A stretch of 40,244 bases of DNA from an uncultured archaeon (GTDB taxonomy: Archaea > Asgardarchaeota > Lokiarchaeia > Sigyniarchaeales > SOKP01), in NCBI GenBank assembly GCA_964493715.1, contig CAZBPC010000023.1:1-40244 (forward strand). The letters run 5' to 3'. Both the position numbers and the translations under genes were made by a program. Each line of letters starts with the position of its first letter. The stretch's first letter is position 1. The notes below the pieces were generated by a model. That model made no database searches. It had not been told where the DNA came from and saw only the letters and a program-made list of their open reading frames with translations. Below are positions 6,083-40,244 of this stretch, piece after piece.

Positions 6083-6505
6083 TTGAGAACAATGGATTTA
6101 AACGATTATGAGAAACTTTTGGATGGAGCATATGAAAAAATTCCAGAAAATGTAAAAAAATCTTCACGATTCGAAATTCCTAAAGTAGAACTGAGAATAG
6201 AATCACGAAATACTTATATTACTAATTTAAACAAAATTATTAATACATTAAATAGAGATAGAAGACATTTTTTAGGAATTTTCCTTAAAAAAGCAGGTAC
6301 TATGGGAGAGATCCGTGGACAACAATTATTTATGAAGGGAATACATAAAGAAAATGCACTAAACCGCTTAATAGACCAATATACTAAGACTTATGTTTTA
6401 TGTAAAATATGTAATAAACCAGATACCGAAATCCAACGTGAAAGCAAAAAAATATTTCTAAAATGTACAGCGTGTGGTGCAAGGGAAGAAATAAAAGAGA
6501 AGTAG
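6083..6505 (+). CDS. eif2b: Translation initiation factor aIF2 beta (ATG at 6092 is the likely start)
   Basis: YEKLLDGAY, RFEIPK, C-terminal YVLCKICNKPDT...CTACGA zinc ribbon. Confidence 0.95.
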   Translation: MRTMDLNDYEKLLDGAYEKIPENVKKSSRFEIPKVELRIESRNTYITNLNKIINTLNRDRRHFLGIFLKKAGTMGEIRGQQLFMKGIHKENALNRLIDQYTKTYVLCKICNKPDTEIQRESKKIFLKCTACGAREEIKEK

Positions 6506-29687: not shown

Positions 29688-30119
29688 TTAAGAATATATC
29701 ATACTTATTTTCTTAATATTCACGAAATTATTGATTATATCATCAAGTTTTTTCAAAAGCGTATCTGATTGTGTCTCGATTGTATTTTGACTAAAAGGCC
29801 AAGAGCCTATCAGTAAATCTCCTAATTTTTTAGTATTACCTATTAAATATCCTTCCTTTTTTTCATCCTTATATATTATCAAAATGACTATGTAATAATT
29901 AAATGAGAGCTGCTGATTCTTTGCCCCCATTTTGATTACTTCTTCGATATTTTGGATATTAATTATGTTTTCATATAAAGCACTCATACTTTTTACTGAT
30001 GATATGAAATGTGTCATATTAATATACTTATCTGATATTACATTATTAAACGTTAATGATAATGATTCCTCCATTTCTCCCATACCCCTAAATATAACTT
30101 TATAGGATACAAAACTCAT
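29688..30119 (-). CDS. Hypothetical protein
   Basis: 143-aa ATG ORF downstream of the aIF1 gene; no motif recognised. Confidence 0.6.
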   Translation of the reverse strand: MSFVSYKVIFRGMGEMEESLSLTFNNVISDKYINMTHFISSVKSMSALYENIINIQNIEEVIKMGAKNQQLSFNYYIVILIIYKDEKKEGYLIGNTKKLGDLLIGSWPFSQNTIETQSDTLLKKLDDIINNFVNIKKISMIYS

Positions 30120-30186
30120 TAAAATCTAACTCGTTAAACAGTAATTATGAATATTTGGTTAATCGAATACTTTATTATTATTTCCT

Positions 30187-30519
30187 TTAAGATCGTCTTA
30201 TCTGATCTTGTATGAGGATATTTTCTTCAGGAAATCCTTGATCCATCAAAAATTTTTTCATTTTTAACTTATGATCTCCTTGTAGTTCAATTTCGTTATC
30301 TCTTACAGTTCCGCCTGAAGCACATTTATGTTTTGCTTTTTTCAAAATATCCTTCAAATTTGCATCGAAATTACCTTCAAAAGTAATAACCGTTACGACG
30401 CGCCCCCATTTCCTCTTATCGTTAGAAATAATAATTTGTTGTTCTTCGGCGCTTAAACTATCACATATACATAGTTCTTTTGGAAAACTACATATTGGAC
30501 AAATCTCGTCGTCTTTAAT
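30187..30519 (-). CDS. Translation initiation factor aIF1 (SUI1), probable ATT start; not in ORF track
   Basis: Translated by hand: (I/M)KDDEICPICSFPKELCICDSLSAEEQQIIISNDKRKWGRVVTVITFEG...KHKCASGGTVRDNEIELQGDH...GFPEENI; these are SUI1 motifs. An in-frame TGA lies four codons upstream of the ATT. Confidence 0.93.
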   Translation of the reverse strand: MKDDEICPICSFPKELCICDSLSAEEQQIIISNDKRKWGRVVTVITFEGNFDANLKDILKKAKHKCASGGTVRDNEIELQGDHKLKMKKFLMDQGFPEENILIQDQIRRS

Positions 30520-30727
30520 GTTCTTTCTTCACAACCTTTATTGTTAAAATCTAAATAAATTTCAGTGCTAAAAATTAATAGACCTAAATCTTATAAAAAC
30601 CTTTTTTATTTCGTTAATTTATTAAAAAGATAAATTTTTATACATGAACCTAGTTTTGTAATTTAGCAGTTGAGATAAAAAATATGCTCTATAAAACTAT
30701 TATCGATCAAATATTAAGTTATTAATC

Positions 30728-31252
30728 ATGTATAACTCTTGGATATTTAAAGTCATCATTGCAGGTGCTGGAGGAGTTGGTAAAACAGCAATGGTCACCA
30801 GATATTGTACAGGAAGCTTCCAAGATGGATACAAAATGACAATCGGTGCGGGATTTAACACCAAATCTGAAGTTTTAGATACAGGGGAAACTGTAAAAAT
30901 GCAACTATGGGATTTTGCAGGAGAAAAACGATTTAGAGAATTGCTTCCTGATTATTGCAAGGGTGCAAGTGGCGCGTTTATATGTTTTGATTTGACAGAT
31001 TACGATACATTTCGCGATGTCCCGGAGTGGTTAAAAATTATTCGTCAAAAAGCAGGATTCATTCCAATTATATTATTAGGAATGAAATGGGATCTGGATA
31101 ATCATGAAATTGACCCCGAAGTTGCTCACGATTATGCTGAAAAAGCGAAGTGCAATCAATGTGTGTTTTGCTCCTCAAAAGAAGATTTGAACATTGTAGA
31201 ATCATTTCAAGCCATGGCTAAATGGCTTATTTACTACGCTTCCCAAGATTAA
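30728..31252 (+). CDS. Small GTPase, Rab/Ras-like (Asgard eukaryotic-signature protein)
   Basis: G1 GAGGVGKT, G2 YKMTIG, G3 LWDFAGE.RF, G4 variant MKWD, G5 CSSK; no C-terminal prenylation motif. Confidence 0.92.
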   Translation: MYNSWIFKVIIAGAGGVGKTAMVTRYCTGSFQDGYKMTIGAGFNTKSEVLDTGETVKMQLWDFAGEKRFRELLPDYCKGASGAFICFDLTDYDTFRDVPEWLKIIRQKAGFIPIILLGMKWDLDNHEIDPEVAHDYAEKAKCNQCVFCSSKEDLNIVESFQAMAKWLIYYASQD

Positions 31253-31412
31253 AATCATTAAATGAAAATTTTTAATTCTAAGAACGCATTTTTAAATAAC
31301 TCAATTATATCGAAAAACCTAAAAAGGAATGTTAATATCATTAATTAATCGAGATGCATTCTTCAATGCTTCTTTAAACACAAGTTTGATATAGGAATTT
31401 AACAAAAACCAA

Positions 31413-31581
31413 GCCTCGGTAGCTCAGTTAGATAGGTCAGAGCAACGCTTCGGTGTGCTAGGCAAAGTAGAGCACCCGGCTCAAATAATGGATTTTTCAT
31501 TATTTCCGGAAGTTAACCGGGCGGTCGCATGTTCGATCCATAAGATCTTCGACCTCCGAAGATCTGGAAAAGCCCGGGGCG
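31413..31581 (+). tRNA. tRNA-Asn(GTT) with three introns (D-loop about 31432-31466; 33/34: 31482-31511; 63/64: 31542-31571)
   Basis: Spliced form GCCTCGG-TA-GCTC-AGTTAG^GTA-GAGC-A-CCCGG-CT^GTTAA-CCGGG-CGGTC-GCATG-TTCGATC-CAT^GC-CCGGGGC-G, with BHB-like motifs at the junctions. Confidence 0.85.
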
Positions 31582-31748
31582 TTAAGTTCCTCTCTCCCTT
31601 TATTTAATTGTCTGAATTTTATCATAATTTCATAACTTATTCTAACTGCGAAAAACAATTAATATGAAAAATGATATTCGAAGCTAATTAGAATGAAATT
31701 CGAATATTAGTAGTATAAAAATATCTGTTTAAAATAAAAAAATATTTA

Positions 31749-31883
31749 TGCTCCCGCCGGGATTCGAACCCGGTTAATGATACAGAACGAAGCGATCTGT
31801 ATTGTCGCCAGGGTGAAAGCCTAGTATGCCAAGCCCTTCCCTTTATATAGAATGAAAGATTGGCCGGACTACACTACGGGAGC
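31749..31883 (-). tRNA. tRNA-Glu(TTC) with two introns (D arm: 31830-31859; variable/T-stem junction: 31774-31803)
   Basis: GCTCCCG/CGGGAGC acceptor, CTAGG-CTTTCAC-CCTGG anticodon arm, CCGGG-TTCGAAT-CCCGG T arm; both inserts form hairpins. Confidence 0.88.
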
Positions 31884-32015
31884 TTGAATTTAAATTATCT
31901 TTTTCTATTGATCAAAACAATTTAAATATAACTTCCTAATTAATCGTTGATTTTAAATTTTATTATCATAGAGTTAGAACAGAAAAAATCATATTCTATT
32001 GATAGAAGAGAAATA

Positions 32016-32100
32016 TGCGGGAAGAGGGATTTGAACCCCCGAACTCCTACGAGACTGGATTCTAAGTCCAGCGCCTTTAACCAGACTTGGCAATTCCCGC
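32016..32100 (-). tRNA. tRNA-Leu(TAG), intronless
   Basis: GCGGGAA/TTCCCGC acceptor, CTGGA-CTTAGAA-TCCAG anticodon arm, long variable arm, GGTTCAAATCC. Confidence 0.95.
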
Positions 32101-32263
32101 GTAATTATATAAAAGATATATTGATAGGAATCCTATATTATATTCAAAATATTGAGACATAATTAAATTTTTCACTTGTAGAAAACCGTCATGATAGATA
32201 AAGATAAAAAAGAGAAATATTTTAGAATAAATATTAGAGTTATTTAAACAACCAAATTACCCA

Positions 32264-33274
32264 TTGGTCTTTTTTATGAGTGTTCGAGAATCCTTAATTA
32301 AGTATCTGACATCAATATTACGTTCTTCCCAGGGAACAATATTAGTAGTTCTATGTGATTTAGATGGTCTTTCGATTGCTAAAATAGGGCGGAAAAGTGA
32401 TATTGATATAAATCCAAACCAAATCACTAGTTTAGCTTCGGCAGCATTTTCAGCGAGTGGGGAAAATTGGGAAGATTTGAACATAAAAGACCAAGTAATA
32501 TCATTTTCATATTTTGATAAAATATGTTTAATTACAATCAGAATAAATGATACTCTATTAACGATAGTACATGATTATAATAAAGAATGGCCTCTGGATG
32601 CCGATAATTTAGCGAGCTCTATGTATTATTTAAAGCAGAAATTGAGTGAGTTTTTTGGAAATTATATAGAGTCAGAAAATGAACTTGAATTATTCTCAAA
32701 TAGAGTAAGAAGTGCAATATATTTATTTGGAATGGGTTCAGAAGTCCCATTTGTATCCTATGCTCCTGAAAATTATGACGAAACAAATCTCCTGCCTGCG
32801 ATAAGTTATGTGTTAAATTCTATACAAAATCCTATTTTCATTAGATATAGCCTTGTAAGCCCGGCAGGCTTAACGATAGATGCTCGTGAGGTTAGTGGTC
32901 AAAATTTGCCAATTTCCGTTGAAGCTTTTTCAGCAAATGCGAATGTTGGATTTCAAAAAATGAAGGAAGAATCCGAAGGGAGCTCTCTTGGAGACTTACT
33001 TAGTTATATCACAATCTCAGGTAATGATCCCGAAAATTTCTATGGAATAATAACTTGCCACGCCGGAATTTTAAAATACTCAAAATTAGAAGAGGTTTCA
33101 AATTCAGAAAGTATATCTTTTGTTGGTTTATTCACTTTAACTTATGGGGGAATACCAATAATATGCGAGTCTAGAAATGTGATATTTTCCATTTTATCTA
33201 TAATTGGTTCCGAACCTACAACAGATAACTTCATTAAAGCTATCAATGTATTAACTAGTTTTAAATATGAATGA
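32264..33274 (+). CDS. Roadblock/LC7 domain protein, probably with tandem domains (ATG 32276 likely start)
   Basis: VVLCDLDGLSIA....ITSLASAAFSASGE Roadblock pattern, and a second degenerate copy (YSLVSPAGLTIDA...EAFSANANVGF). Confidence 0.72.
   Translation: MVFFMSVRESLIKYLTSILRSSQGTILVVLCDLDGLSIAKIGRKSDIDINPNQITSLASAAFSASGENWEDLNIKDQVISFSYFDKICLITIRINDTLLTIVHDYNKEWPLDADNLASSMYYLKQKLSEFFGNYIESENELELFSNRVRSAIYLFGMGSEVPFVSYAPENYDETNLLPAISYVLNSIQNPIFIRYSLVSPAGLTIDAREVSGQNLPISVEAFSANANVGFQKMKEESEGSSLGDLLSYITISGNDPENFYGIITCHAGILKYSKLEEVSNSESISFVGLFTLTYGGIPIICESRNVIFSILSIIGSEPTTDNFIKAINVLTSFKYE

Positions 33275-39062: not shown

Positions 39063-40244
<1,182 letters not shown>

Follow-up and report, generated by a model that had tools for sequence, protein, structure and literature searches.

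The aIF1 (SUI1) gene of an uncultured Sigyniarchaeales archaeon very likely begins at a near-cognate ATT codon at position 30519, on the minus strand of the window (the whole stretch of DNA analysed, 40,244 nucleotides long). The preferred explanation is that initiation at this AUU is guided by a Shine-Dalgarno (SD) element and gives negative feedback of aIF1 on its own synthesis, a reading to which a probability of roughly 0.6 is assigned. The choice of ATT is strongly supported by in-frame stops one to three codons upstream, by the position of the SD element, by the use of canonical codons at the homologous position in sister genera, and by purifying selection on the codons that follow.

Gene Structure and Product Identity

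Read on the minus strand, the start region runs TTG TGA AGA AAG AAC ATT AAA GAC GAC GAG ATT TGT CCA ATA TGT, with the first Cys codon (TGT) of the CPIC motif at 30501-30499 (Table 1). The first-pass annotation, made from the sequence alone, had described this frame as closed upstream by an in-frame TGA and as lacking any usual start codon; both points were verified on the minus strand, where the TGA at 30531-30529 lies three codons before ATT 30519 and no ATG, GTG, or TTG occurs in frame between that stop and the zinc knuckle. The gene had also been said to be missing from the open reading frame list, which indeed holds just a 56-aa fragment beginning at TTG (30187-30357). The GTGA at 30532-30529, 9 nt from ATT, the TTG-TGA start-stop at 30534-29, and the out-of-frame mini-ORF at 30532-30515 were likewise all present as claimed.

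The 110-residue product matched Pfam PF01253 (SUI1) with an E-value of 9.8e-18 (64.8 bits, cut-off 25.5) and NCBIfam NF002096 with an E-value of 1.1e-33 (115.5 bits, cut-off 98), and has the CxxC...CxC knuckle and the length of ∼100 aa that define an archaeal aIF1; knuckle residues C2, C5, C12, and C14 were invariant in a 22-family Asgard alignment. The NF002096 alignment joined residues 4-103 to positions 2-101 of the 102 in the profile, which places the family N-terminus about two residues after ATT 30519. This is the only SUI1 gene in the genome, which is rated 100% complete. The acidic codons after the start (30505-30513) and those of homologs are mostly GAC GAC, though the genome has a G+C content of 31%, a preference for C-ending codons beside the aIF1 start.

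Table 1. Features of the aIF1 locus and its surroundings (window coordinates).
Feature	Position	Strand	Basis or remarks
aIF1/SUI1 CDS	30187..30519	-	110 codons from ATT; stop TAA 30189-30187
ATT, proposed start codon	30517..30519	-	presumably decoded as Met by the initiator tRNA
Zinc knuckle CPIC...CIC, N-terminal	30463..30501	-	translation; residues 7-19 of 110
SUI1 domain core	30229..30444	-	Pfam match, residues 26-97; same range in genome search
GGTTGTGA, degenerate Shine-Dalgarno element	30529..30536	-	GTGA core 9 nt before ATT; includes in-frame TGA 30531-30529
Mini-ORF GTG AAG AAA GAA CAT TAA	30515..30532	-	in most family members; stop overlaps ATT
A/T-rich conserved block GATTTAGGTCTATTAATTTTTAG, TATA-like	30568..30590	-	conserved columns in 27-sequence alignment; putative promoter
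143-aa ORF downstream of aIF1	29688-30119	-	no Pfam match
Ras-family small GTPase	30728-31252	+	PF00071, 3.9e-37; divergent from aIF1
tRNA-Leu (anticodon TAG)	32016-32100	-	ARAGORN and Rfam
aIF2-beta	6131-6484	+	PF01873, 7.6e-30; ATG start, MDLNDYEKL...

Conservation of the Start Among Relatives

The architecture-bearing loci were collapsed to 64 distinct 160-mers, in which the start codon was ATT in 60, ATC in three, and ATA in one. The first-pass annotation had named ATG at this position in all close relatives as a finding that would speak against an AUU start, and ATG occurred in none of the 64. The second codon was AAA in 60 sequences. The distance from GTGA to the start was 8 nt in four sequences and 9 nt in the other 60. 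Among orthologs, median dN was 0.073, median dS 1.45, and median dN/dS 0.047 (566 pairs with usable dS, from 40 of the 58 distinct orthologous coding sequences), indicating strong purifying selection on the protein; retention of the ATT, the SD 8-mer, and the spacing despite saturated synonymous sites is more than would be expected by chance. The codons directly after ATT encode Lys and then three acidic residues (D/E), with GAC/GAT and GAA/GAG exchanges, and their synonymous variation with retained acidity indicates that they are translated.

In the first sample of 40 relatives, the 16 same-genus loci that reach the start shared TGA, three codons, and ATT-AAA-GA, with the flanking codons varying, while a 17th is cut by a contig end. 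In many relatives, GTGATAA or GTGATAATAG creates two to three consecutive in-frame stops (TGA-TAA(-TAG)) one to two codons before ATT. A scan of species representatives found 80 loci, with titles mostly of Promethearchaeota metagenome-assembled genomes, and 60 of the 79 examined lacked an in-frame canonical start before the Cys codon. In the sister family and genera, the homologous codon, there followed by Pro-Lys-Asp, was TTG, GTG, ATG, or ATA; in one relative (L227), the alternative upstream GTG has been lost and the ATA retained.

Several same-genus genomes that are 93-100% complete (G010, G017, G018, G023, and G024) had no PF01253 match and were excluded from the counts, and 7 of 24 same-genus genomes in the first sample had no SUI1 match with a protein query. 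In these genomes, aIF1 may fall within a stretch that is hard to assemble or bin.

That the missing canonical start reflects an indel from assembly or sequencing, or a pseudogene in decay, is extremely improbable. A precedent exists in Sulfolobus solfataricus P2, whose aIF1 had earlier been annotated with a frameshift that, according to a section of a recoding review, was a sequencing error (PMC8211752). Here, however, the same architecture recurs across many independent assemblies, with 64 distinct sequences, selection on the coding sequence is strong by the dN/dS given above, and the gene is the sole SUI1 copy of a genome rated complete. The check for an indel called for by the first-pass annotation found none across 30446-30554, either in contigs from three DNA runs or in those from one metatranscriptomic RNA run. 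Because the source sample may be among the DNA runs, these do not count as independent support; the RNA-run contigs belong to a close relative, with 2-8 differences, so that they are no proof of transcription and show no expression level, strand, or 5′ end. The ATT start is not an assembly error.

The aIF1 Leader

The 8-mer GGTTGTGA upstream of the ATT was identical in 56 of the 64 distinct related sequences. The 3′ end of the 16S rRNA, encoded on the same contig within the window (∼39064-39109, minus strand), reads ...GGATCACCTCC and thus supplies the organism’s own anti-SD. Against this 3′ end, the leader element GGUUGUGA can pair at six of eight positions with two central mismatches, or through a 4-nt GUGA core. 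Spacing from GTGA to ATG in this genome has a mode of 6 nt, with 4-10 nt used, and the 9-nt spacing occurs at 24 of 1820 crude ATG starts. The SD is weak, with its 4-nt core or its two central mismatches, and its spacing is above the genome mode, both of which count against the best explanation; nor would simple selection for a weak SD predict that the two mismatched Ts are conserved exactly. Use of SD elements is also reported as rare in Lokiarchaea in passages of a published account (PMC12993045); positioning led by an SD is thus not assured.

Two further sets of leaders bear on the spacing. Paralogs of aIF1 in four genomes start with ATT (three) or ATA (one), followed by AAA GA, at a distance of 8 nt from an intact GAGGTGA or GGAGGTGA, and a Thermoproteota clade (L296, L303, L306, L310-L313, L315, L319, and L266) has GGTGA, with in-frame TGA, then 9 nt and TTG AGC GAA ATT TGT, a leader geometry like that of the window with a weak canonical TTG instead. 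Together, these leaders indicate that 9-nt-type spacing is typical of aIF1. The four paralogs (L036, L038, L163, and L164) are second copies, ∼60% identical, whose in-frame GTG belongs to the SD; the copy in genome G005 (L164) contains one stop (TAA) inside the first protein-search match.

The leader is A-rich. If the TATA-like block is the promoter, as its conserved columns suggest, the transcript would begin near 30550 and carry a 5′ UTR of ∼30 nt; an end of an RNA-library contig at 30554 gives a weak hint of the 5′ end. RNAalifold predicted 0 pairs around the start on 27 sequences, folding of the single start region gave a z-score of −0.54 with no structure element found, and an Rfam search of 30000-33000 returned only tRNA, with no leader or riboswitch family.

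Alternative Start Sites

Public annotations of the relatives disagree on where the protein begins. In the NCBI automatic annotation, which arrived at its calls independently from protein-family evidence, relatives’ proteins start MKDDEICPIC, so that the ATT start is already implicit there, whereas calls from other pipelines begin MCPLC... or MWRKNIKDDE, or are fragments of 70-91 aa. Three public calls (P0001, P0004, and P0008) have the form MW(R/I/K)K..IKD.., with the TTG taken as start and the in-frame TGA decoded as Trp; such MW(R/I/K)K calls are annotation artifacts that arise where a canonical start is missing.

Translation might instead begin at the out-of-frame GTG at 30532 and enter the aIF1 frame by a +1 frameshift at CAU-UAA-A, in the manner of prfB or antizyme, or by termination and reinitiation at AUUAA, a reading that is considered improbable. 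Every distinct start region with ATT or ATA, 61 of the 64, carries the arrangement of GTG, four codons, and TAA or TAG over the ATT, and one genus retains the stop as TAG where the second codon is AGT. The GTG nevertheless belongs to the SD core GTGA and lacks an SD of its own, as the AAAGG ends 2 nt before it; its frame offset is forced by the 9-nt spacing, and the stop by ATT followed by A(A/G)N. At loci that start with ATC (L041, L042, L176, L178, and L185), the stop of the mini-ORF is lost, and in the ATC genus the frame runs for 15 codons. The paralogs have the GTG in frame, and the CTG and ATA lineages lack a conserved out-of-frame start. The mini-ORF is thus judged to be a by-product of the SD together with ATT-AAA.

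The comparison with prfB (RF2) leads to a similar assessment. Frameshifting of the prfB type combines a slippery P-site codon that re-pairs in the +1 frame, an in-frame stop, and an SD ∼3 nt upstream. The aIF1 locus resembles this system in having a short upstream frame whose stop overlaps the main frame, and in encoding a translation factor that could sense its own activity. It differs in that tRNA-His or tRNA-Tyr on the CAU or UAU before the UAA cannot re-pair on AUU. The distance to the GTGA is also 9 nt rather than 3 nt, the upstream start is without independent support, and the ATC genus does not keep the stop.

A start at the ATT that immediately precedes the first Cys codon (the second ATT, 30504-30502) or at some other unrecognized codon is slightly less probable still. 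Some NCBI calls in relatives begin MCPLC, and this codon too is ATT, ATA, or ATC in relatives; however, it lies 24 nt from the SD, and the intervening K-D/E-D/E-D/E is conserved at the amino acid level with synonymous change. The family profiles moreover align from about two residues after the first ATT, and orthologs with canonical starts begin four to nine codons before the Cys. Initiation at ATT 30519 is therefore retained as the preferred assignment.

Start Codons Across Asgard Archaea and Thermoproteota

To place this start in the phylum, PF01253 was searched in 151 Asgard genomes, 142 of which matched, and the first sample of 40 relatives was added; six paralogous or partial second copies, matches with <80 aligned residues, loci at contig ends, and G092 and G056 were left out. 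Of the 155 genomes in the resulting survey, 53 start aIF1 with ATG, 32 with GTG, and six with TTG, and 50 have only a near-cognate codon (31 ATT, 11 CTG, six ATA, and two ATC), although the window’s own genus is heavily sampled and contributes 21 of the 31 ATT genomes. Another eight are ambiguous, with an SD-positioned ATA or CTG at the homologous codon and an upstream canonical codon that lies inside the SD or is without one, and six lack the zinc knuckle and were left unclassified. Non-canonical starts occurred in 17 of 57 genera. The first-pass annotation had proposed an AUU start on aIF1, which stands for this gene and its relatives but is too narrow in scope, as AUU, AUC, AUA, and CUG are found in several Asgard families. 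In the tabulation of aligned start codons that it suggested, a near-cognate codon is conserved throughout the relatives (64/64), and the ATG genomes make up about a third of the survey.

Near-cognate starts in other families also follow SD-like motifs. In family f9, GGAG lies 8-11 nt before GTG (seven genera), CTG (six genera, with a seventh ambiguous), or ATT (one genome); AGGAGG, 9 nt, and ATA are found in f17 (3/3 genomes) and f11 (one genome), and AGGTG, 7 nt, and CTG in f6 (2/2 genomes). A tree of aIF1 proteins, built without the start region from an alignment of 149 rows and 104 columns and with many forks unresolved, required 10 changes between the canonical and non-canonical states, and family labels alone delimit at least five separate near-cognate lineages. 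Among Thermoproteota, 100 of 101 genomes matched, and none of the 90 loci examined was without a canonical start (ATG 77, TTG 10, and GTG 3) under a lenient rule in which any in-frame ATG upstream of the core was counted.

The pattern is particular to aIF1 among the initiation-factor genes compared. In the window’s genome, aIF1A, aIF2-alpha, aIF2-beta, and aIF5B all have ATG at the expected N-terminus, and in five other genomes with CTG or ATA on aIF1, aIF1A and aIF2-beta were canonical in 10 of 10 cases (ATG 7, TTG 2, and GTG 1), giving 14 of 14 canonical starts overall. The two TTG starts are those of aIF1A in f9 genomes with CTG on aIF1 (L280 and L282); aIF1A starts with ATG in the other three and in the window’s genome. 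A genome-wide scan of 3870 long open frames picked out 241 in which the first canonical start comes ≥40 codons in, and was too noisy without homology to judge whether aIF1 is unique. ARAGORN detected 16 tRNAs in the genome (27 with the intron search) and no tRNA-Met, a result that is uninformative on the initiator tRNA.

Proposed Feedback and Its Relation to Known Systems

In the proposed mechanism, the aIF1 mRNA would carry a short, unstructured, A-rich leader, on which weak, split pairing of GGUUGUGA with the 16S 3′ end would set AUU 30519 in the P site of the small subunit, and initiator Met-tRNA would presumably read this near-cognate codon. Initiation on the aIF1 mRNA would then be suppressed when aIF1 is abundant and relieved when it is scarce, the outcome being homeostatic negative feedback on start-codon stringency. 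Passages of two publications describe aIF1 as destabilizing complexes on non-AUG mRNA (PMC6237735, PMC4705826) and, in its presence, the S. solfataricus 30S complex as binding an AUG mRNA and not an AUU mRNA (PMC4705826; also PMC6237735). If aIF1 destabilizes near-cognate complexes, it should depress its own synthesis from an AUU start. The feedback idea is strengthened by this published discrimination in vitro and by the recurrence of near-cognate starts on aIF1 and not on four other initiation-factor genes.

The AUU could also be the true start and simply set a low constitutive rate or be tolerated, with no aIF1-dependent feedback, which is regarded as unlikely though it is the strongest of the competing explanations. 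The 53 ATG genomes show that the loop is not obligatory and, with the 38 using GTG or TTG, that the factor works without a non-canonical start; aIF1A, too, uses a weak TTG in two genomes. A merely tolerated codon is harder to reconcile with the recurrence of near-cognate aIF1 starts in at least five families, their absence from the 14 other initiation-factor genes checked, and the lack of ATG in all 64 distinct sequences at a dS of 1.45. Given the reported rejection of AUU by aIF1 in vitro, moreover, some feedback is almost unavoidable if AUU is the start. By analogy with the systems below, aIF1 feedback probably operates.

Two such systems had been invoked in the first-pass annotation. Bacterial infC, encoding IF3, is described in a review passage as autoregulated through an AUU start (PMC4705826). 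As in infC, an SD followed by an AUU start opens the gene of a fidelity factor (in 64 of 64 related sequences, GTGA precedes the near-cognate start by 8-9 nt), the codon is conserved and among these relatives never AUG, and the logic, for aIF1 by analogy, would be negative feedback. IF3 and aIF1 are, however, unrelated proteins from different domains of life, and the aIF1 codon varies by lineage (AUU, AUC, AUA, CUG, GUG, UUG, or AUG). Eukaryotic eIF1 is described in passages of two sources as autoregulated through an AUG in poor context (PMC6237735, PMC4705826). Archaeal aIF1 is the ortholog of eIF1, with the same fidelity role and a suboptimal site on its own mRNA; the eukaryotic version relies on poor context around a true AUG in a scanned mRNA, whereas that of aIF1 would rely on a near-cognate codon and a weak SD. 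An AUG in weak Kozak context, as in eIF1, was not found here, the start being ATT with an SD-like element present.

Implications

No description of a non-AUG start or of autoregulation for archaeal aIF1 was found in a search of full-text literature that covered main texts and few subscription journals (further literature behind this assessment: PMC7531240). In sections of Asano’s review, the use of GUG and UUG starts in archaeal translational control is given as undetermined (PMC4705826), and the relevant part of a recoding review lists for S. solfataricus aIF1 just a retracted −1 frameshift (PMC8211752).

The consequences for annotation are immediate. Automatic gene calling shortens, overlooks, or misreads this essential gene, yielding fragments of 56-91 aa or proteins with TGA read as Trp, and these miscalls affect the marker-gene sets and annotations of the genomes concerned.

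Near-cognate aIF1 starts recur in the archaeal phylum closest to eukaryotes. A tentative and rather doubtful extension is that e/aIF1 already limited itself through a deliberately poor start site before eukaryotes arose. SD-poor Asgard archaea would then tune start-codon stringency genome-wide through the aIF1 level, set by a near-cognate start (AUU, AUC, AUA, or CUG), and the poor-context AUG of eIF1 would be a scanning-era descendant of that arrangement. If the feedback is real, control of a fidelity factor through its own bad start site would be a principle of all three domains of life, and the aIF1 start would give a concrete point at which to test how Asgard archaea, poor in SD elements, set their start-codon stringency.
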